Part shown: positions 5,413 to 64,000 of the stretch, piece by piece
Layout: the number at the start of each line of letters is the position of its first letter
Numbering within the stretch: the stretch's first letter is position 1
NCBI GenBank assembly: GCA_001662655.1
Contig: KV460211.1
Length of the DNA stretch: 64,000 nucleotides
Strand: one strand, 5' to 3'
Source of the DNA: Pseudogymnoascus verrucosus
Taxonomy: Eukaryota
Position numbers and translations under genes: made by a program
The notes under the pieces: generated by a model
The model's input: only the letters and a program-made list of their open reading frames with translations
Told to the model about the DNA's origin: nothing
The model's database searches: none

Positions 5413-5424
5413 CGTCGCGCATCG

Positions 5425-6346
5425 TCAACTGGCAAATGATCCCTCTTTACCTGCTATCGCCTCCACAATGCGATCTACAGCCCCCAATGCCCACAAATTT
5501 CCCTCATCCCCTCCGAGCCACTTCTCACCCTCGCCCACTTCCTCGCCGCCCTCATTGATGCCCTTCCGCAGACCATATATGTGTGACACAACCTGAGGAC
5601 CCACACCCGTCTGCGCGCGTAGACATGCGATGGCCACCAGTGAGGTTAGCACTCTTCCCACGGCGGGTTTATGCACGCCTGGGAAATCACTCAGGAGCGA
5701 GCCGTAGTGGTTGCTGAGGATGTGTACGGGTAGGTCGGGGTGTGCGGCCTTGAGCTTGGCTTCCAGCTTTCTGGAGTGAGGGTCGTATATTGAGTTCCAC
5801 AGCCCCTTCGCTCTTGTCTCCACTTGTTCAAGGGATTCTGGTGTGAGAGTCCTGCGTCACCTATTGTCAGCCGTTTATCCTGAGTCGGGTGGATCGAGGG
5901 ATTTACCGTGTCGGTGTCGTGGAGAGCTGCTCCGCGGTTTCTGTAGGGAGCGTAGCCCGGAGGTGTACGAGCTGGTTGAGGGCGCGGGGTATGCCATTGA
6001 AGCTGATCGTCTTAAGCCCAACTTCGCGCATGAAAGCTGCGTTTTGGAGGGAGGAGGTAGGGTTGTAAGAGGCGAGGCTGTGGAGGAGGGTTAGAGAGGC
6101 GGGAGAGTTGACGGTCATGGTCGCGGCTGTCTGTGAGATGTTAGCAGCGATGCACACAGGCGAGGCAGGAAGGCGCACGGTAAGGGCAAGCCATGGGAGA
6201 ACGCCGAGAGAGTTAGAAGTAGCTTCGCGCTGTATGTCGGAGTAGATGGCAGTGATATTATCTGGGGCGGGGAGGGGCCCAGAGCGGGCGAAAGGCGCGT
6301 TGATTGCCGCCTTGAGGGCGGGGGAAAACCTAGACATGACGGCCAT
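5425..6346 (-). CDS. AhpD-like/carboxymuconolactone-decarboxylase-fold protein (Pxp2-like); 3 exons
   Basis: Spliced MSRFSPALKAAINAPFAR..WLALT/TAATMTVNSP..MREVGLKTISFNGIPR..TPTR/..GLWNSIY..HPDLPVHI..HYG.LLSD..GRVLTSLVAIACLRAQTGVGPQVVSHIYGL. Introns have GCTAAC/GCTGAC branch sites. Confidence 0.8.
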
Positions 6347-6594
6347 GAAGGGAAAGAGCGACCAGAAGGTGCCAAAACGGAAAGCACGACGTCGAGGAAG
6401 GAGCGAGGGAACGTAGTGTGACTCGTTCCTTCCTCAATAATGTATGGTAAAGTCGCTGTAGGAGGGATGCCTCAGTATTGGCCGTGCACACACCAATGCC
6501 GCCGCCCGCGTCAACCATATCTCCGAGCTCCAGCTTAACTTTCTCAACCGCCGCAACACCACTGAGCTGTTACAGCTCCACAATCTTCACCATA

Positions 6595-7438
6595 ATGCTG
6601 CCATTACGAGTAGCTCGCGCCACAGCGCGCACTGCCATGCGTGCAGCTGCGAGGCCATATTCCTCCCGCTCGTCACTCTCCCAACAAGCACCACAAGCGT
6701 GGACACCCGTCCCATTTATCACCGAGACGATAGTGAGTAGCCAATGCGCCGACCCAAGAACCTAGCTAACCACCCCAGGGCGGCGGATGGAGGACATGTA
6801 TGTAACCTGGCCATAGTAGGAAGAGCACGCCCCGACTAACCCCCACAGCCGATATCTTCTCCAAACTCCTCCAGGAGCGCATCATCTGCCTCAATGGCGA
6901 GGTGAACGACACCCTCTCCGCATCCATCGTCGCGCAACTCCTCTTCCTCGAATCTGACGCGCCCGCGAAGCCGATCACGCTTTACATCAACTCGCCCGGT
7001 GGCTCCGTCACGGCCGGCCTCGCGATCTACGATACCATGACTTACATCCACTCACCGGTGCACACGGTGTGCGTGGGGCAGGCGGCGTCGATGGGTTCGT
7101 TGCTGCTGTGTGGTGGAGAGAAGGGACACAGATACTGTCTGCCGCATAGTAGTGTCATGATCCACCAGCCGAGCGGAGGGTACTTCGGACAGGCGAGCGA
7201 CATTGCGATTCACGCAACGGAGATATTGAGGGTGCGGAAGAGCCTGAATGAGATATATAGGCGGCACTTGACGAGGCGGAAGGAGGGCACCGTGAGTGGG
7301 GAGTGGACTCTGGAGGAGATCGAATTGATGATGGAGAGAGATAAGTTCTTGAGTGCTGGGGAGGCACTGGAGATGGGGATTGTGGATGAGATTCTGGATC
7401 GGAGAGGAAAGCCGGAGGAGGAGACGAAGAGTTCTTGA
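6595..7438 (+). CDS. CLPP: Mitochondrial ATP-dependent Clp protease proteolytic subunit; 19-nt micro-exon at 6779-6797
   Basis: Presequence MLPLRVAR.., [51 protein letters not shown] (catalytic Ser), MIHQP and MERD. Divergent from the AhpD-like gene across about 250 bp. Confidence 0.96.
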
Positions 7439-53146: not shown

Positions 53147-55252
53147 TTAGGATTGTCCGTTGATCAATGCTCGAATCCAATCTGGAACCGCAGGCTTGGA
53201 ATCCCAGCCGTCGAGATAGCTCTCTGGCGCAACTCCGGGGTTAGAAGGCTTTGCATAAACGCCTGTGGCATACCACTGGGTCGAGCCGGCCTTGATCGTG
53301 TGCTGCAGAGTGGGAATGATAGTCTTCTTCTCCACAATATTGGAGTTTGGATCCGCATTAACAATCATGGCCGTGCGATTGCTCGGCCGCTCGAGGTCGG
53401 CAATCTCGAGGTCGGCGATACCCACGGCACCTTTAGATACTGCAAATGCTCCTTCGGCGCCCGGGTTGCTTCCGCCCTCTGCGTCTAGGTCGTAGTTGCC
53501 AACTATGCGGGGTGATGTCCCTTCAGCGATCTCCGACTTGTAGGGGCGCAGGGCTCGACCATCGGCCTTGGCAATATTGTAGATTGCGAAAGATCCGTCC
53601 GCAGTCATGACGTCGCGGCCAGCCTCGATCCTGTGAACTCGGATGTGCCAGTTAGGGTGTTTTTCCGTAGACGGAATGAGCCATGTCTTGATGGTTACGT
53701 CCTTGAATGGCTTCCACACGGATACCAAGACGGGCAAATCATCATGAACCTCTATCCCAGACTCCTCACAATTTCTCCGCGTCTTCCAGACCTCCCCTTC
53801 GTCGTCTGACAACCCCAATGTCGAGTCCAACGCAAACTGTTCGAGTGTGTATCCTCCTGGAGGGACGGAATATCCATAAGCGCTGGAGTATGCGAATTTT
53901 CCGTACTTCGCATGAGTGGACTTCATTGGATAGCCACAAGCTTGGCCTGACGACAACAGCATCCTGTGGCCCCCATGGTACGTGATGATATGTTTGGGAT
54001 GCTTCAGACTCTTGATGACGGGTAGTTGTTTGGATGGGTAGGGTTCCTCAGCTGATGCCCAGAATGGATGTGACTCTGGAACAGCTAAGCAGATGAAGGC
54101 CAAGCACGCCCAATATGGTGATCCCTGCTGGTCAGCATCAAGTCTAGGTTATGTTGAAAGTTACTTACAGGACTGTTATAATTCTCGAGCATGTACATAT
54201 TGGGATATGAGTATCCAAGATTAAGTGTCCCTGACGGACCAAAAATATCCGGCTGCGTCTGCCACCAGCGCAGGTTCCTCAGCACAATACCCTTCACGAC
54301 TCCCCAGGTCAAAGGTGCAGGTAGGTCAATCTCGGCGTAGGCGATGGCGCCCCAGAATGAAATCATGCCGAATCGATATCCGATCGAACGACCGAACGGG
54401 AGAGCTCGGCCTTCTTCGTCGAAGTAAAGGACAAAATCGAGCGCGAACATCTCTCCGCGGCGCTTGAACTCTGCGCTCGTCTCTGGATCCTGTTCTCCGG
54501 CTAGCTTGGCGTAGAGAAGCTGGAGGAATTGGATAGCAAAGGAGCCGGAATAGTAATCCATCTGGTGAATGTGCTCAGGCCCGTCGTTTGACCAGCCGTC
54601 ACCGCGGTAGAAGGAATCAAGGTGCTTGATGTCCTGGACTAGCATTTCCGGGGAGTGCTTTGCTCCATTACGGAGTAATCCCAGGTTCGCAAAGACGCGG
54701 AACCACAGCCAGTTTGTATTTGGCATGACTCTGTAGTTGTTAGTAAAGAAACATGCCTTTTTTTCATGAGCCTTACTTATCATTAATCCCTCCAAGATAC
54801 CTCTCCACATTCCCCTTCTCTTTCTCATCCAGCGCATCCCAAAATGCCGGCACCACAGCCAAAGTCCAGCCGATACAGCACATCTCCACCATACGCTGAT
54901 CGCTATCCTCCGACTGCCCCCAGTACTCTTCGCTCTCTGGATTTGTGCCCGCCTTCAGACCTTCAATCCAGCGCGGCGTGTTCTCATAAGTGCCACCACC
55001 AGCAAGCATAGAAGCCAGTCCCCAAAGTGGGCGGGCATAGCCTTCAATCTCCGACGCAGTATTGTCGAAGCGCACGGCTGTAGCACCGGGGACCTTGATA
55101 CGAGAGCATTGTGGAGAGAAATGCTGTTGGAGAGGGTCGAGGATAGTTTTTAGTAAATCCTGGACAGACTCTCTGTCTGAAAGCTTCACTTCACAGAAGG
55201 GATGCACGTCATTGTACCCCAAGACCTTGGCTCGGAAGTCTGAAGATGTCAT
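53147..55252 (-). CDS. DUF2264 family protein (possible GH154-type glycosidase), no signal peptide; 3 exons
   Basis: [87 protein letters not shown] and [10 protein letters not shown]. Confidence 0.9.
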
Positions 55253-55759
55253 TTTGAGAGGTGTATGGGAGGAATTGCGATTGATACTAATGGGGGTTAG
55301 ATATATCTCCACATGAAACTACTCTATATAAACGTCCACCTTTGAAATCTCCGGACTCTGAGGCAGACCGGAGATAGTCCGGCGAAGCATTTAGCCAATA
55401 TACAACGTGGGGTTCATCGCAACCCCTCATGCTGCGATGCGACTAGGGACAACAAGTGCCGAATATCCACGAAGCTGCACGACGAAATCACTTGACCCAA
55501 TTAAAGTAATTAATGTAAGCAGTAAACGATTAGGCATATCATTCATCCTTAGGACTCCACGTCGGAGTCCAAAAAGGTAAAAATCTCCACCTATAAAATG
55601 TAAATCACGTGCAACCACTTAAACCCCTCGCGTCGCGTCGCGTCTCCCAACGCGCCTACCCAGACCTCATCCCAAGTATCGCGACCACAAGCATTTCACC
55701 ACAATACTCAGCACCACTCCACCTCACTTTACCCCATATCCCTCTCTATACCGCGCACA

Positions 55760-57381
55760 ATGATCCGCCAGGATGCAAAGCGCATCGCCTCCAACCGGCG
55801 CGCCGAACTCGACCACCGCAAAAAACAGTTCGCTACGGCTAAATTTCAGGAACACACTTACCCCCACCGTCTGAACTTCTACATCCTTCCCCCGACTGCA
55901 GATATCACGCTCGAGCAATTCGAACAATGGGCTATTGACCGATTACGCGGTTTGTCCCCTCCCATCCCCCCTGTCCCAAATTCGCGGCATGGAGAGAAGA
56001 GGGTGCTAACTCCCCCAAGTCCTCGCAGAGTTAGAAGCATGTTCCTTCCGCAACAAAACCCCCGCCGAGACAGCCGCGCACATGAAGCCACTGATGGATA
56101 AATACCTCCCCCTCTCGTCCTCCTCCAGCTCCTCTCCCAACCTCGCCTTAGAGAGGAAAAAAGACCACTACAGCCACTTCATCCTGCGCCTCGCATTTGC
56201 GTCGACCGAGGACCTACGGCGGCGGTTCGCGCGGGTGGAGACGGCGCTGTTCAGGCTGAGATTCCAGAGTGATGATGCCAGGGAGCGCGGTGCGTTTGTG
56301 GCGGGGCTAAATCTGGAGTGGGAGGCTGTTGGGGATGCGGAGAAAAAGGAGATATTGCCTGAGCTTGTGGCGGCGGGGCAGGGGAGGAAGGCGAGCGAGA
56401 TGGTGGATGAGGGGTGGTTTAAGGTAGATTGGATGAAGGTCCCTGAGCTTGTGGAGAGCAGGAGGGTGTTGCTGAAGGGGGGGTATGCGTATGTGCCAGG
56501 ACGGGAACAGATGAGTATGGTTCTTGCGGAGTTTACGGCGAGGCTTGATAAGGCGCTTGAGGTGAGTCCCCAGCTATCCAACCCAAGGAGATAAAACTAA
56601 CATCCCCCAGCAAACTTCCCGCGCCCTCCCCCGCCTCGATGAAGACGACCGCCTCTCTCCCATCCTCGCCCACCTCTCCTCCACCTTCCTCACCCCCGCC
56701 TCCACCGCCCCCTCCTCCATGGTAGCAGGCACCATAACCGCAGCCTCGATCCCCTCTCTCCTCCCCAACTTCCCGCTCTGCATGTCGACCCTCGGCACCA
56801 CGCTCGCCACCACACACCACCTCAAGCACTACGCGCGTCTACAGTACACGCTCTTCCTCAAGGGGCTGGGTCTGTCGCTGGCGGACTCGCTGCAGTATTG
56901 GCGTAGTGGGTTTAGTGCTGTGACGGACGATACGTTTAATAAGGAGTATCGGTATAATATCCGGCATGCGTACGGAGATGTGGGTGGTGATGGGAATAGA
57001 CGCGGAGGAGGCTACAGTCCGTTCTCCTGCCAGAAGATCCTCACCGAGCACCCCCCCGGACCGGGTGAAGCGCACGGATGCCCCTACCGGCATTACAGTC
57101 TCGAGAATCTCACTGCGACGCTGCAGCGCACGGGTGTGACGGATGGGAGCGTGCTGAAGGGGGTGAAGGATGATAGGGAGAAGATGAAGTATCATATGGC
57201 ATGTAATCGCGTGTTTGAGCATGTGCATGCGAGGGAATTAAAGAGGGCGAAGGAGGAGGGGACGAATATTGGGGGGGGGGAGACGATTGTGCATCCGAAT
57301 GAGTATTTTAGGAGGAGTTTCTTGTTGAAGGTTGGGGCGGTTAAGAAGGAGGGAGGGGCGGAGATGGAGGTTGATGGTTAA
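55760..57381 (+). CDS. PRI2: DNA primase large subunit; 3 exons
   Basis: YPHRLNFY..ITLEQFEQWAIDRL/..ERKKDHYSHFILRLAF..LFR.RF../DEDDRL..FPLCM..HHLKH..RLQY.LFLKG..YNIRH.YG..SCQKI..HGCPY..ACNRVF..HPN.YF, including the Fe-S cysteines. Confidence 0.96.
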
Positions 57382-57624
57382 AGTGGCTGGTTTGGGTAGG
57401 GGATGGAACAGAGGCGTTTTGGTGTGGGGGTTGGTTAGGCGCGAGGTATGCAGTGTAATATGGAATGAATGTATGAGAGTTTGTATGAGCGTCATTGTAT
57501 TGTGCTATGTATCGTGATATATATACCTAAGAACGAAAGACTAGACGGATAATGACAGTCTGAGGGCTAGCAGCGACAGCTTGAAAACCCAACTTCAGGG
57601 TCAACGCGATGCTCTGCGTCTCCG

Positions 57625-57775: not shown

Positions 57776-57822
57776 CAACCTCAGGTATCGTTAATAGCCA
57801 ATTTCGATCGGGATCAAGATTG

Positions 57823-57946
57823 CGAGAAACGACCAGGCGGCAAGAACGACAGGTTGCAAGAACGAGAGGTGGCAGGAACGACAGGTGACAAGAACGACAA
57901 GTGGCAAGAACGACTGGCGACAAGAACATCAGGCAACGAGAATGAC
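57823..57946. repeat. Minisatellite family A: 16-bp unit CAAGAACGACAGGTGG x~8
   Basis: Units start at 57841, 57857, 57873, 57889, 57905, 57921 and 57937, an exact 16-bp period. Confidence 0.9.
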
Positions 57947-58244
57947 ACCTGTCCAAGACCCTGGTATAGACGAAGGCGGTCGTTGGTATCGGTCATGAGA
58001 TTGTCGAATACATCTAGGTCAGAAATGGCAGAGGATAGGGCACTCCCACTCGATGGGGTTGGGGAATTAGGGGACTCTGTTATGGGGCCTCGAGCCTCAA
58101 GGTCTCTCAGAGCCATGTCTGAAATCCAGCCTCATTAACAGATTTCTCACGTTCAAGAGCGGCACTGGCCTGATGACTTGCAGCCGATCATAACCGAGTG
58201 GGTTTGAGGAGGGAGGCGGGCGGGCGGGGCAGGATGGAATGAAA

Positions 58245-58495
58245 GAGGAAGGGACGACTGGCTTGCCGAAGGAAGGAACAACTGCAAAACTAAAATAAAA
58301 GCAAACAACAGCATTTTTCCAAACGAGGACTAGATTTGCCAAATGTGTTGCCCAAAAAGAAAGGAGGAACGAACGACTAACTACTGACGGAAGGAACGAC
58401 TGACTTGCCCTAGAAAAGGGGAAGGAGTGAATTACTAATAGAAAGGCGAAGAAAAGAACGACTGCACATGCCGGAGGAACGAACGATCGGCTTTG
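58245..58495. repeat. Minisatellite family B (GGAAGGAACGACTG..CTTGCC, ~24-28 bp, degenerate), array 1
   Basis: Recurrent ggaagg(a/g)acgactg, gaacgaacga and cttgcc motifs. Confidence 0.75.
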
Positions 58496-58936
58496 ATGCG
58501 GCGGGAATATGGTAAACTGTTGACTTGATAAAGGAAGGAGCGAAGGGTCGGTGAAAACAGAATGGATGGTGTGGCATGATGCAAAACGTATTAAATGTGC
58601 ATACATTGTGCCAAAGTCATTAGAATGTGGCGAACTGGCATACCTATTTTGTGTGCAAGAGATAGCCCTGTCGCAAATCAAGAAAAGGTAAGCCTATTCG
58701 CCATGTCGTAGAATATTTGCTGATGAAGCAGTTCAGTCAACCCAGACAGCCGCCTGCACAGTTCGGACAGCCCGGACAACCCCCTCACCCCCTTTGGAGA
58801 GGTCCAAGCAGAAGCTCTTGTCAAAGAGTACCAGGCTGGCAGTGCGATCCTAACGGCCCATGCGGAGAAGTTATAACAGTTTGAGAAGAAGTTGGATGCG
58901 GTAAAGGAGGCGATTGATGACATTCCCGTTTGGGAG

Positions 58937-59006
58937 AGGCGGTGAGAACGAGTGGTGGTGAGAATGACAAGCGGCAAGAACGACATGCGGCGACAAGAAG
59001 GATAAG
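58937..59006. repeat. Minisatellite family A, array 2
   Basis: tgagaacgag/tgagaatgac/caagaacgac/caagaaggat at 58943, 58959, 58975 and 58994. Confidence 0.75.
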
Positions 59007-59674
59007 TGCGTGGTCTGCGTCCGGGACACCACATGAGTTATGGGGCTGTGGGTGGTGGGATGGGACACGCAAAACCAACTTTTGGCGCGTGCAATATCGA
59101 ATATTTTGCGGAGGTTGTTTGGCCCCTTCAGGGGATTGTCGAGATTATTGGTACCCCCAATGGCAATGAAGCGCCTCAACAGCAACTCCAAGTCTCCGCC
59201 CCACGATACAAAAGCCTATCCTTCTTCTGGCTCGGGCATTCCTTGACTTCAATTGTCCCTGGTTTCTCGGGGTCATAGGGTCGATTATACAGCAGAAGTT
59301 GAGATAGAGTCCCTTTTTTATATCCCCGTATACTCTGCGGCCCACATGTTCATATTCTGCGGTTATAACACGACTAGAATCTGTATGACAAAAATAAACC
59401 AGGCGGAGAATGACAGAGGGAGGTGAGAGCTTCTACAACCATCTCAAGGACCGATTACTGACAGATATCAACAAGTTCACGGGTGCCATTGACACGGTAG
59501 ACGGGGGGGTGACACGATATAAAAGGAGGTCCAGGTCGTTGTTCAAACCTATTTCCATCAATCTCGCAAGCGCCGCCGTTCTTCACGGTCAGAGCGCACC
59601 TCGATTACCTCGGCGCGAAGGTTTGGAGAGCGGGAACTGCATTGCCATAGCGAGGAAGTGCGGGAAGAAATGGC

Positions 59675-59761
59675 ATGTGGTGAGACTGATAGGTGGTGGT
59701 GAGAATGATAGGTGGTGGCAAGAACGAACAGGTGACAAGAAATACAAGCTGCAAGAATACC
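59675..59761. repeat. Minisatellite family A, array 3
   Basis: tgagactgat/tgagaatgat/caagaacgaac/caagaaatac/caagaatac at 59681-59752. Confidence 0.7.
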
Positions 59762-59929
59762 ATCTTAACGGCACATGCTTGACCTGCTACATCACTTAAG
59801 GCACGTACGTCCATTGTGTAGATGTCATCTCATCTTTCCTTTTTGTCACGCTCCCTCAACAACTTTGTTCTTCGCGATCAAGTTCCCCTTCTGATATAGA
59901 GCGAGCTAATGATGATTCATGGAGTTTAG

Positions 59930-60105
59930 GCTAGAAGGAACGGCTGGTTTGTCAGGGAAAGAAGGGAGAGTTGACTAGGCTTACCGGAGGAAGAACGAAC
60001 GAACGATTTGTTTTTGCCAAAGGAAGGAACGACTGGCAACTAAAGGAAAGAACGACCCGACTTGCCAAATATTGCCTAAAAGGAAGGAGGAAGGAAGGAA
60101 AGATC
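59930..60105. repeat. Minisatellite family B, array 2
   Basis: gaaggaacggctgg, gaacgaacgaacga, aaggaaggaacgactgg and aagaacgacccgacttgcc. Confidence 0.75.
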
Positions 60106-60457
60106 GATATGGCTTATGAAATTCGAGACTGGCATCGCCCACCGTCACATTAATCCGTACTCATAAACTCCCCACATCTCTCAGTCGCCCAGACCAGATT
60201 CCCAACGGTGCACCCACTCTACTCCACAATCACACATACTGCCCCAGCCGAGACACGACTTATCGCGCGTATAAACCAACCATTAAACACCAGACTCCGT
60301 CATCGAAGACTTTTTGCTCAGGTCGATGCTACATTCCACGAGCTTATGGAACTGCCACCAACTGACGATCGGGGGGTTGGTGTGATGGATATCTGAAGGG
60401 GGGGAACGCGTTGTTATGCTCGAGGTGAGTGTAGGGGGTGTTGCTGTTGCTGGGGTT

Positions 60458-60481
60458 TTGTTGTTGTTGTTGTTGTTGTTG
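60458..60481. repeat. (TTG)8 microsatellite
   Basis: Read directly from the sequence. Confidence 0.9.
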
Positions 60482-60734
60482 GGCTTCTTCGTGTTGTTGG
60501 GCTTTTTTCTCGCTGGCGCTCGCTTTCTTGTCGTTGCCCCTTTCCCACCGTCGCCCCTTCCGTGACCTCCTCCCCCAACTCCCTCACAAAATCAACCGGC
60601 CACCGCCTACTGTGACTCCGGCGATTGAATATGTCCCTTGCCAGCCATAAAACCATATTTTGGCTTATTATGGATTGTCGCCCATATGATAATTTTCGTC
60701 GCGAGATTATCAGAGATCCGACGCCTAGGTTGCC

Positions 60735-60945
60735 ATGAGAAGAAGGAACGACTGACTTGTTAGGGGAAAGAGGAAAGGACGACTGGTTCCCCAAAGGAAG
60801 AAAGGAGCGGCCAACTTGTCAAAGGAAGGAACGGCCGGTAAACTAAATTGAAAGAACAACCAAAACGACGACTAAAAGAAAAGACGAACGAACGAATGAC
60901 TGCTGAAGGAAAGGACGACTGAGTTGACTTAGCTTGGTAAGGGAA
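60735..60945. repeat. Minisatellite family B, array 3, abutting the 5S terminator
   Basis: gaaggaacgactgacttg, ggaaaggacgactgg, aaggaaggaacggccgg and ggaaaggacgactgag. Confidence 0.75.
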
Positions 60946-60951
60946 GCAAAA

Positions 60952-61018
60952 ACATACAACAGTGGGTATTCGCTGGTGGTCACCCACCTAACTACTAATC
61001 CACTAATCTCAAGCTTAA
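60952..61018 (-). rRNA. 5S rRNA gene, 3' half only (~nt 53-119), interrupted at box A; Pol III T-run terminator at 60948-60952
   Basis: Minus strand reads TTAAGC-TTGAGA-TTAGTGGA-TTAGTAGTT-AGGTGGGTGACCACCAGCGAATACCCACTGTTGTATGT-TTTT, matching the ascomycete 5S 3' half. The 5' half (ACATACGACCATAG..CCCGTCCGCTCAGCC) is absent. Confidence 0.9.
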
Positions 61019-61223
61019 AGTGGATTGATGCTTAGGACGGTGCTATTTAGACTAGCGGGTAAGCGTCGCTACCCTTAAGTTTTTAATGCCTTACGATAAT
61101 CTAGTTGTCCCCCTTAGCTACCTAATAGCGGCTACGTTAACACGTATAAAGTAGGTCTTGTATTAAGACGTGATAAACGTAATGTACTATAACTTTAGAT
61201 AGCTATAGATAATCTAGTACCTA

Positions 61224-61260
61224 GGTAAGCGAGGGTAAGTGAGGGTAAGTAAGGGTAAGC
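61224..61260. repeat. 10-bp tandem repeat (GAGGGTAAGT) x~4 upstream of the captain
   Basis: ggtaagc-gagggtaagt-gagggtaagt-aagggtaagc, followed by TATAAAA at 61271. Confidence 0.8.
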
Positions 61261-61392
61261 TTAAAAATAGTATAAAAGGTACACTCCTACTATGTCTAGA
61301 TTTTACAGCCTAATATCTATAACATTCTTCATTTACTTTTAAGAACTTACCTACTACTATAGGATAGAAAACCCTCTCTAAAGAAGGATGAA

Positions 61393-62725
61393 ATGCCCTA
61401 GTATAGTTATAAGGCTACTTTAAGTAGATAACATCTAAATAATAGAGTATATTAAGTTAAATTAAACAACGTTCTCTCTCTAGTGCTACTAAAGTTAAGT
61501 ATGTAGACATAGGGGAGGTATTCTAATAGTACATAAGACTTAATACTATAAATAGTGCTACTAATAGACATATTAGGTTTCTTGTTATAAAGGGTATATA
61601 GATAGATGTTACAGCTGAAACATGCAACCTATATGCTGCAAGATAGATTAATAAGGTGAAATAGCTTATAGCTAATTAGCAGCAGGAAATAGACGCAGAG
61701 ATTGTAGGTAGCTTAGTTAATAATGGCACCTTTAGGAAAAGGTACCTTTCTTAGAAGGTACCTGGCAAGAGAGAGGTGCCTATTAGGAAAGGCACCTATG
61801 TAGAGTAAGGTGCCTCCTTAGGAAAGCACCTATGGGAATTGGTACCTGCAATAAGTGTAGCACCTCTTATAGGACACACACGTAATTTAGATTAGTAGGA
61901 ATAGTGAGAATAGTTAGAGAGTCTGCTATTCTAACTATTCCCTTTAGCACAACGCTACTATATAAGTAGATAGTTATTCCTTAGATAGGAGCTTCGTGCT
62001 CAACTTAATATAGTATTTGTTATATACTATAACGTGTTTTACAAAAGCCTTTTGTGTCTAATCCCCTGCCTCCTCTGTTAAGTAAACTAACGAAACCTCT
62101 ATGAGTCTTATAGTTTAAGACCTAGCGTTACAATAGACTTATTACTATCTATATAAGTACTATAGAGTCTAGCTATCTTTTGCTTTAGTTTTCTTTACTA
62201 ATACTAGTACTAGAGGTAGTACCTATATAGAGTTAAGTTCTTATAGGGTAATAAATTAAGTAATTACTTATAAGGTATGTTAAGTTTATATAAAGCGCTA
62301 CCTTACTAACTAATTAGGATTGCTATATTTACTTACTATAAGATGCTAATAGCAGTTTTACTTTTAAACTTAAAGTGATTTAGTAATATTTAAAAGGAAG
62401 ACATAGTAATAAGAATGACAAGTATGTAATTTTATAGAAGACTATAAGTAATGCTTACTATATATAGCCTCTATATTGTTATAGATTTAAAAGATAATTT
62501 GTAATATAATAGAGTGATGTGTTTTTTTACTATAGTAATAGCTAATAATGCTTTTAAATGCTATAAGACTCTAGAAGACCTTATAAAGGCTTGCTTACTA
62601 AGAGGGAGAGATTTATAGACTTTAGAATAGAAAGACAAAGCCCTTAACTATCCTGTCCTTTAGATGGAATCTTTAAATAGCACATATAAAAGTAGGGCAC
62701 TAACATTTATAACTTAATTTAACGA
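61393..62725 (+). pseudogene. RIP-inactivated DUF3435 tyrosine recombinase (Starship captain), LTR-interrupted and 3'-truncated
   Basis: Raw spliced translation after the LTR: YLYKYYRV*LSFALVFFTNTSTRGSTYIELSSY..ITYK/DCYIYLL*..LKVI**YLKGR../..NRVMCFFTIVIANNAF..LE*KDKALNYPVL*M..SRALTF. Undoing only C>T/G>A gives YPHERYRVQLS..FADTGARGGAYVESSSY..YKD..QRYLKGRR..AMAIADDAF..LEWKD..PVLRM..RALTF. Introns at 61529-61576, 62275-62317 and 62422-62467. All stops are TAA/TAG. Confidence 0.82.
61607..62132. mobile_element. Solo LTR (526 bp) with 5-bp target-site duplication ATAGA
   Basis: TGTTACAG...GCGTTACA termini, ATAGA at 61602-61606 and 62133-62137, internal TATATAAG at about 61960. Confidence 0.9.
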
Positions 62726-62768
62726 TGTAACGGTAAGCAAGCTGCTAAAAAGGGCAGCTTCCGTTACT
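62726..62768. repeat. Imperfect inverted repeat/hairpin with LTR-like termini (TGTAACGG...CCGTTAC) at the captain truncation point
   Basis: GTAACGG-(TAAGC)-AAGCTGC-taaaaagg-GCAGCTT-CCGTTAC. Confidence 0.7.
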
Positions 62769-63385
62769 GTTTTACATAGCTCGTTTGCTAACTTTTTAAT
62801 ACTCCTACATGGTGGAATATCGCTATTACTGTGTTTTAGGTATAACGAGGAGGGTGGGTTGGGGAAGTTGTGGGCATGGAGGGGTAGTTGTTTGCGCTCC
62901 AGGAGTCCAGGGGCCTAGTGCCAAGCTTTTTTTATACTTTTTTTCGGGGCGGGACGGGGGAATCGTAGGATCTTTTCAAGACCCTGCACTACGGCGAATG
63001 CTGGGGATTCCATTCTGTGAAGCTTTTATTGGCGTCGAACCTATCGTTCAAAATTTTGTGCTGCCATCCCTGTTAATCTATTCTTGCCGCCCACAATGCT
63101 AGTAATATCACCGGAATCTCTATGAAATGAATTCTAAGAGGGATAAAGACACGGACAGGATCACACAGGAGAATTGTCAGAGCGCAGTTTGAGGATTATA
63201 CAGTCATAATGGTAGCCCACTGGCTACTATGAGCGGCAGTCTGTTTGAGTGCCGAGTAAACGCTTCATTAAATCTGATCGTCGACTACGAGGACGATGGC
63301 TATTCTCCAAGAAGCTACAAAAGAACCCTTGAGAAGGGCGACTGCAGCATTGTCCAGCTCTTGCTATAGAATCTTGCTCAGCAGA

Positions 63386-64000
63386 TTAAGACTCATATGG
63401 ATTGCCACAACAAGGGTAAAATTCACAAGCTTCCGCTGTGATATTTTTCCCGAAATAATAAGCCCAGCTGGTGAAGGCTTCAGTCGGACTGCAGATAGGG
63501 ATACTAAAGAATCCAGCCGTTGCGAAACCATTAGAGAATGGCACAGATCCAGGGTCTCCAGTAGTCGGCATCTTGTAGCCATTTTGCTGGAAATTCCGCA
63601 ACCAACCATCATATGACGAGGAGACCATGTTTTCTTTAGTTACGGATCCGTACGTGCCATCTCCGTTGACAGATGAGATTCCAGGCAGCGCTCGGAATAC
63701 TTGACCCTCACATGAGTTTGGCACTATTGTTACCCCCTGCTTCTCGCAAGTATGCAGATCAAGTAACCACAACGTAGTATCGCCATACGGTACTCTTGAA
63801 ATATTTGCGTCATCATCTGATAGAATCCGCGAACTTTCAAGAATAGATGTGGTTCCGCGTCCACCACCAAGAGGATGCGGAAAATCTATGCTTAGCCGAA
63901 ATCCATCTTCTGGAACATCGAGTTCGTCGAGGTAGACGAGCACAGGCCAGACATCCGGATCTAGCTTCCATGCTATTGGGATCAGTTTGGCATAAAATGC
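63386..64000 (-). CDS. Partial CDS (C-terminus): Cys-containing domain of the type found at the C-terminus of large GH18 chitinases and secreted proteins; possible Starship cargo
   Basis: Frame is open to the window edge: YAKLIPIAW..PV..FRALPG..YGSVT..MVSSSYDGW..NGY..GFFSIPICS..AF.SW..YPCC*. Normal GC, no RIP signature. Confidence 0.7.
   Translation of the reverse strand, partial: AFYAKLIPIAWKLDPDVWPVLVYLDELDVPEDGFRLSIDFPHPLGGGRGTTSILESSRILSDDDANISRVPYGDTTLWLLDLHTCEKQGVTIVPNSCEGQVFRALPGISSVNGDGTYGSVTKENMVSSSYDGWLRNFQQNGYKMPTTGDPGSVPFSNGFATAGFFSIPICSPTEAFTSWAYYFGKNITAEACEFYPCCGNPYES

Follow-up and report, generated by a model that had tools for sequence, protein, structure and literature searches.

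In this work, we have analysed a window of 64,000 nt (the whole stretch of DNA under study) from contig KV460211.1 of Pseudogymnoascus verrucosus, the last ~3 kb of which hold the remains of a mobile element. Our results show that this region is very probably the 5΄ terminal fragment of a Starship-class element, bearing a captain gene killed by repeat-induced point mutation (RIP) and lying at a split 5S rRNA gene. Captains are described as tyrosine recombinases with a DUF3435 domain, whose gene lies at the 5΄ end of a Starship (PMC11162782). A RIP signature is found in just two of the 64 one-kb bins of the window, 61001-62000 and 62001-63000 (TpA/ApT 1.9 and 1.8, composite index +1.35 and +1.18, respectively), the composite index being at most +0.05 in the remaining 62. 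The island proper extends over 60980-62830 (GC 0.33, TpA/ApT 1.85, (CpA+TpG)/(ApC+GpT) 0.53); its element-derived part, 60999-62830, directly adjoins the 5S piece, and the composition is back to normal rightward of ~62830.

The gene relic within this island starts at 61359, 361 bp from the inner end of the 5S piece (60998), and reads on the plus strand away from it, as the initial annotation of this DNA had claimed in placing an inward-facing gene within ~370 bp of half a 5S gene. The two genes lie on opposite strands, and the captain is the first gene at the left end of the element, reading inward. The DUF3435 identity proposed at that time for the de-RIPed translation was borne out by a phmmer search, in which the frame 62142-62831, with stops read as X, was compared with 1.84 billion representative proteins. 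Ten proteins were matched at E<=1e-3 (best 2.1e-16, then 6.4e-16), and the DUF3435 domain (PF11917) is present in eight of them, in seven above the gathering score. When longer relatives of one of these matches were searched for, nine proteins were recovered, from several Pseudogymnoascus strains, Claussenomyces and Venustampulla, and all nine are annotated with PF11917; the homologues span nearly the whole profile, with 118-141 bits. The closest homologue, P0017 (535 aa), is collinear by tblastn with the relic from codon 1 (61359) to about codon 322 (62756), in four segments (Table 1). The phmmer match together with the tblastn matches of separate segments (E 2e-18 and 3e-8) excludes chance.

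The protein motifs quoted in the initial annotation each align with the corresponding residues of real DUF3435 homologues. The relic reads 'YLYKYYRV*LSF' opposite 'YLHERYRVQLSF' of the homologue, 'TSTRGSTYIELSSYR' opposite 'CGARAGAIVESSSYR', 'TYKVC' opposite 'TYKDC', 'LKGRHSNKNDK' opposite 'TKGKRDDEND', 'IANNAF' opposite 'IADNAF', 'DL*TLE*KD' opposite 'DSWTLKWKD', and 'PVL*M...RALTF' opposite 'PVLRM...RALTF'. By analogy with the literature on captains, the family would act as a tyrosine recombinase. Other searches were uninformative: a word-index protein search with the relic frame gave 940 candidates, none at E<=10, a PDB sequence search with the family profile gave no match at E<=10, and an AlphaFold2 model of P0017 built on a nine-sequence alignment reached a mean pLDDT of 33.4, unusable for fold comparison.

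Un-mutated relatives of the element were obtained by scanning a metagenome-contig collection with the family alignment, which yielded five loci (L001 to L005). The captain protein of L001 is 81% identical to P0017, and at the DNA level (blastn) L001 20-724 matches window 60947-61606 with 71.7% identity, and L001 1082-1648 matches 62141-62707 with 75.5% over 567 ungapped nt. Both L001 and L002 start with the 3΄ piece of a 5S gene (Rfam 25.9 and 23.1 bits, below threshold), and in both the intact captain starts ~400 nt beyond it on the opposite strand, the same layout as in the window. The presence of the same 5S/element junction in un-mutated relatives argues that this lineage inserts site-specifically into 5S rDNA, as had been supposed from the window. 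A conserved TATA box lies at window 61272-61279. Between the left end of the element and this captain TATA box we also observed a tandem array of 9-10-nt GGTGAGC-type units, at 61224-61260 in the window, 295-381 in L001 and 255-340 in L002, with 3.7 RIP-mutated, 8.8 and 9.8 copies, respectively (Tandem Repeats Finder). It is a candidate for recombinase binding sites or for a promoter element. A second branch of the captain family, represented by L003 and L004, has a 39-nt tandem repeat reaching to ~15 nt before the start codon (L003 1-150; L004 1-310), with at least seven copies in L004, and the contigs of both loci end within it.

The 5S piece itself was matched by the Rfam model RF00001 (5S_rRNA) at 60951-61041, minus strand, with 20.6 bits, short of the gathering score of 38 (E 0.5). 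It aligns well at the 3΄ end (48 nt, 60951-60998); just this 3΄ part is 5S, as expected of a disrupted gene. In a three-way alignment of the window, L001 and L002, the sole difference within the 48 nt is a C>T of the window, whereas next to them the element sequences have diverged strongly; the half 5S gene of the initial annotation is thus confirmed as a 3΄ end. Identity of the 5S type may extend to about 61005. The 5S gene is thus broken ~48-56 nt before its 3΄ terminus, the core of the junction being near TCCACCG/AACTACTAA.

Contigs of four related public sequencing runs, among them X2, X3 and X4, were also compared with the window. In all four runs the 5S piece has a depth of ~50-70x single-copy, and in X2, X3 and X4 9-10 contigs per run end at 60947/60948; such break-offs and raised depth would be expected where a gene with many dispersed copies ends, and the disrupted copy is one of roughly 50-70. 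The left-flank contigs of the same three runs all stop within the 5S piece, at 60974/60975. Separate contigs of X3 and X4 hold 60991-61260, that is part of the 5S and the first 200 bp of the element, at ~85% identity, and each related genome has ~2-6 diverged copies of the element, some with the 5S junction. Judged by sequence, what the window, L001, L002 and the run contigs present is the pattern of a site- and orientation-specific insertion into dispersed 5S genes. As a separate observation, some X2 and X3 contigs carry the 5S piece and the first 40-70 nt of the element and then immediately a second 5S 3΄ end (region 60948-61069; backward steps of 122 and 92). Other 5S loci may thus hold short footprints of the element, or tandem arrangements.

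The piece at 60951-60998 is the sole 5S copy in the window, and the 5΄ part of the gene was not found within the 64 kb by Rfam or motif searches. There is no full-length RF00001 match at the gathering score anywhere in the window; a whole-window Rfam search at E<=10 gave no further fragment, the known piece itself dropping out at that search size; and motif searches of the window for the middle part of the gene gave no match, plus one at chance level. Two candidates were rejected. For a look-alike of the 5΄ half at ~62935-62995, minus strand, a search of 221 nt did not yield 5S at E<=10, and the depth in the related runs is that of a single copy, and the direct repeat candidate 'CCGTCC' is not conserved in L001.

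Table 1. Features of the split 5S gene, the element fragment and the conserved left neighbourhood (window coordinates)
Feature	Position	Strand	Evidence
5S rRNA gene, 3΄-terminal 48 nt, with T-run terminator	60951-60998 and 60946-60950	minus	Rfam below threshold; identity with L001/L002; depth
Element 5΄ terminal non-coding region, RIP-mutated	60999-61358	plus	blastn to L001 20-724, 71.7%; three-way alignment; Tandem Repeats Finder
Captain relic, codons 1 to ~83	61359-61606	plus	tblastn of P0017 1-55 onto 61359-61523, 53% identity, E 3e-8; L001 DNA alignment
Nested long terminal repeat (LTR)-like repeat, 529 bp, TG...CA ends, ATAGA on both sides	61607-62135		depth; break-offs; L001 gap
Captain relic, ~codons 151-322	62141-62756	plus	phmmer E 2e-16; tblastn E 2e-18; L001 1082-1648, 75.5%; weak PF11917 match
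AT-rich tail, without assignable homology	62757-62830		composition change; GC 0.36 over 62708-62830
Match to P0017 1-55	61359-61523	plus	tblastn E 3e-8
Match to P0017 ~151-201	62146-62298	plus	tblastn
Match to P0017 194-238	62318-62452	plus	tblastn
Match to P0017 228-322	62466-62756	plus	tblastn, 55% identity, E 2e-18
DUF2264 gene, intron-split	53147-55318	minus	conserved left neighbourhood
DNA primase large-subunit gene (PRI2)	55600-57400	plus	conserved left neighbourhood

How was the copy inactivated? Of 1171 positions aligned with L001, 288 differ, and 200 of these are C>T or G>A, with 32 reverse transitions and 56 transversions; 123 of the C>T/G>A sites stand in CpA/TpG context and 65 in CpG. 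Once the RIP-type changes are left out, the window and L001 are ~92% identical. The start codon of the captain, ATG, is now ATA, and the aligned segments hold 24 in-frame stops; at 15 of these the homologues have Q, R or W.

The gene has also been disrupted on a larger scale. The initial annotation had described three introns, and had proposed to remove 61607-62137 as the first of them. Two of the three stand, since the frame changes at ~62299-62317 and ~62420-62465 coincide with introns of the intact L001 gene; a small tandem duplication at 62266-62348, to which overlapping tblastn segments pointed, was rejected, the ungapped L001 match and the L001 intron position favouring an intron. The first one is a foreign stretch indeed, at 61607-62135, but not an intron: L001 725-1081 (357 nt) has no counterpart in the window, and a 529-bp repeat stands there instead. 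This repeat recalls a solo LTR in some respects (TG...CA ends, ATAGA flanks, high copy in the related runs), yet the host gene has lost 357 bp at this point, which implies more than a simple insertion. Its depth is ~64 to 700x single copy in X2, X3 and X4, with break-offs at 61606/61607 and 62132, and there is no second copy of it in the window. A paralogous copy of the element in X2 has 355 other letters at the insertion spot, which fits the 357 nt of L001. The repeat was also sometimes seen joined directly to 5S in the related runs (joints 61004/62016 and 61017/61980).

The homology of the captain ends in the middle of an exon, the last matching position being 62707 in the DNA comparison and 62756 in the protein comparison; about 322 codons are thus reached, out of 535 or more. 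The truncation precedes an invariant 'KIHAI.AGVANKIK' block of the relatives, which we take to be the recombinase HxxR motif, and 40% or more of the gene is gone at its 3΄ side. In X3, one contig of the right flank connects 62587 with 61306, but its shorter arm has only 32 letters, and we regard it as no more than a faint indication that additional DNA was deleted. With its stops, the 357-bp replacement and the missing 3΄ part, the captain gene is, as read from the DNA, dead and presumably no longer mobile, in agreement with the immobilised copy of the initial annotation.

We propose that site-specific recombination brought an ancestor of this copy into one of the dispersed 5S genes, near nucleotide 65-72, and that the 5S gene would thereby have been cut in two. 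The family would have several copies in the genome, and this repetition would have triggered RIP. C>T and G>A changes left by RIP pervade the copy, and in its captain gene 357 bp have given way to an LTR-like repeat; such a copy would now be unable to move or to make protein. As for the remainder of the element, with its cargo and the second part of the 5S gene, we consider it rather probable that they were lost by deletion or rearranged; that they are still present beyond position 64000 seems doubtful.

Several results weigh against our reading of the island as a captain-bearing Starship end in a 5S gene. Pfam gave no match to the six whole-frame translations of the region with stops as X; among 78 overlapping 90-codon tiles, a single one (62475-62744, plus) matches PF11917, below threshold (11.7 bits, E 0.12), and four others have unrelated weak matches. 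Re-cut to 62442-62831, the relic matches profile positions 97-156 of PF11917 with 12.0 bits, below the 25.8 cutoff because of RIP. All three 5S matches, in the window, L001 and L002, are below the Rfam gathering score. The junction was seen in two of the four loci that include the captain start, since the L003 and L004 contigs end in the 39-nt tandem repeat before any junction; L005 lacks the captain start. L001 and L002 come from one public record series and are also alike in the ~19-26 nt past the 5S terminus to which their contigs extend, so that their testimony on a host target is not wholly independent. No right end, direct repeat, terminal inverted repeat or cargo was seen within the window, which ends 1.2 kb past the relic and shows the left junction alone, and among the four related runs, all of which carry the locus, we saw no empty site with an intact 5S gene and no presence/absence polymorphism.

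The nucleotides shared by L001 and L002 past the 5S 3΄ end, and the recurrence of the 5S part together with the first 200 bp of the element in the related runs, would also suit a 5S-like piece that is a captured fragment carried by the element and not the remnant of a disrupted host gene. We regard this as extremely improbable, as the piece stops exactly at the natural 5S 3΄ end with its T-run, at the very point where the 9-10 other contigs per run break off, it is invariant while the element DNA next to it in L001 and L002 has strongly diverged, and on its far side the window has another flank, which is unique. A DUF3435 element of small size, Crypton-like or solitary, with 5S genes as its target but without cargo, and so no Starship, would account for the mere ~1.8 kb of element visible here and for the lack of cargo, direct repeats or terminal inverted repeats; moreover, PMC11162782 names Cryptons as the nearest relatives of the Starship recombinases. 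This too we hold to be very improbable. The homologues cover nearly all of PF11917 with 118-141 bits, and the Starship literature defines captains by DUF3435 and reports 5S insertion with the captain beside the junction as a Starship pattern. In addition, L001 has further genes downstream of its captain, which speak for a cargo-bearing class over a Crypton, the far end of L001 lying off its contig. Among them is a 611-aa alkyl-sulfatase open reading frame (ORF) at 5420-7255, minus strand, 3 kb past the intact captain, with a metallo-beta-lactamase fold and alkyl-sulfatase dimerisation and C-terminal domains; it is possibly cargo.

A further alternative is a whole Starship, merely immobilised, whose cargo would be the DNA to the right of 62830, including a large gene with GDSL and FG-GAP domains, and whose second 5S piece would have to be sought past 64000. 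The C-terminal part of that gene is an ORF at 63389-64000, minus strand, running off the window. It shares 99% identity with a portion of a Pseudogymnoascus protein of 1283 aa, in which GDSL-lipase and FG-GAP domains and a weak TcdB_toxin_midN match are found. A word-index search limited to proteins of 358-2000 residues found one protein cluster for it, weak evidence for cargo, and the absence of the 5S 5΄ part from the window, which means that the element is not closed there, and the inward-reading captain at the left end are in keeping with a whole element as well. Nevertheless we consider it unlikely. The captain ends mid-exon at 62707-62756, and homology to L001 never resumes in 62708-64000, which has no blastn similarity to the 6 kb downstream of the intact L001 captain and no DUF3435 in the frames of 62700-64000. 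In X2, X3 and X4, three other organisms that share the left flank too, the right flank occurs once and has ~99% identity, with no polymorphism marking mobility. The X4 right-flank contig follows the window only down to 62712, carrying 815 nt to the left of this point, where a rearrangement may have had its breakpoint.

Our results give no support to one suggestion of the initial annotation, that the Starship body is still present and that the downstream genes may be its cargo: the relic ends at about codon 322 and is followed by single-copy, un-RIPed DNA unlike that downstream of the L001 captain. With neither the 5S 5΄ part nor a right end, an empty site or cargo shown, a 'hidden Starship with cargo' is something that we can do no more than infer. 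It is quite unlikely that the single-copy DNA on the right is the cargo of a large Starship, frozen when RIP and rearrangement killed the captain. If this were true, giant transposons would have moved accessory genes, including a toxin-complex-like one, among Pseudogymnoascus lineages.

On the left, the primase gene and the 5S piece are separated by 3.5 kb in which, at 57816-60915, arrays recur: 16-nt repeats of AACGACAGGTGGCAAG and units of the GAAGGAACGACTG type, both found three or four times over. The related runs vary in these arrays, with a loss of 16 nt at 57851 and joints 60724>58830 and 58224>60947.

What do these findings mean? For the biology of the window, the relic is a dead fragment. 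It shows, however, that recovery is possible even for a captain gene which is invisible to ORF callers and falls below the Pfam threshold. Moreover, a Starship lineage that targets 5S is thereby placed in a genus for which our literature search found no described Starship, although supplements of Starship papers may list captains from Pseudogymnoascus. L001 and L002 supply the intact left end of this lineage, its precise 5S junction and a conserved 9-10-nt GGTGAGC array.

The damage in this copy resembles that of other RIP-inactivated transposon relics of the Pezizomycotina in its AT-rich island, its TpA excess and CpA depletion, the dominance of C>T/G>A at CpA/CpG, and its stops at former Q, R and W codons; in this respect the relic is nothing unusual, RIP being confined to the repeated 1.85 kb. 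Cryptons use a related class of recombinase and are small, like the part of the element visible here; in contrast, the homologues of the relic match the DUF3435 profile over nearly its full length, and the layout at the 5S gene follows the Starship pattern.

The closest likeness is with the 5S-targeting Starships: Voyager of Macrophomina phaseolina, the Enterprise-, Arwing- and Voyager-family elements, and Osiris. Of 222 curated Starship insertion sites, 23% are in 5S rDNA, with at least five distinct internal target sites (PMC11162782), and Osiris elements fragment 5S copies in Aspergillus fumigatus, where degraded Starships are also mentioned (bioRxiv 10.1101/2024.06.28.601215). Experimental evidence for the autonomy of Starships is reported in a further paper. 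Like the relic, these elements have an inward-reading DUF3435 gene at the 5΄ end and insert inside a dispersed 5S gene, fragmenting it; like the family of the relic, they keep a fixed orientation to the 5S gene and occur in several copies per genome. In contrast to them, the relic is a RIP-degraded fragment that lacks 357 bp internally and its 3΄ part, with no cargo or right end shown. The site of the break differs too, since Voyager inserts into 5S 20 bp from its 5΄ start (PMC9156397), whereas the relic breaks the gene ~48-56 nt from its 3΄ end. The relic thus belongs to a known type of insertion, 5S-targeting Starships having already been published.

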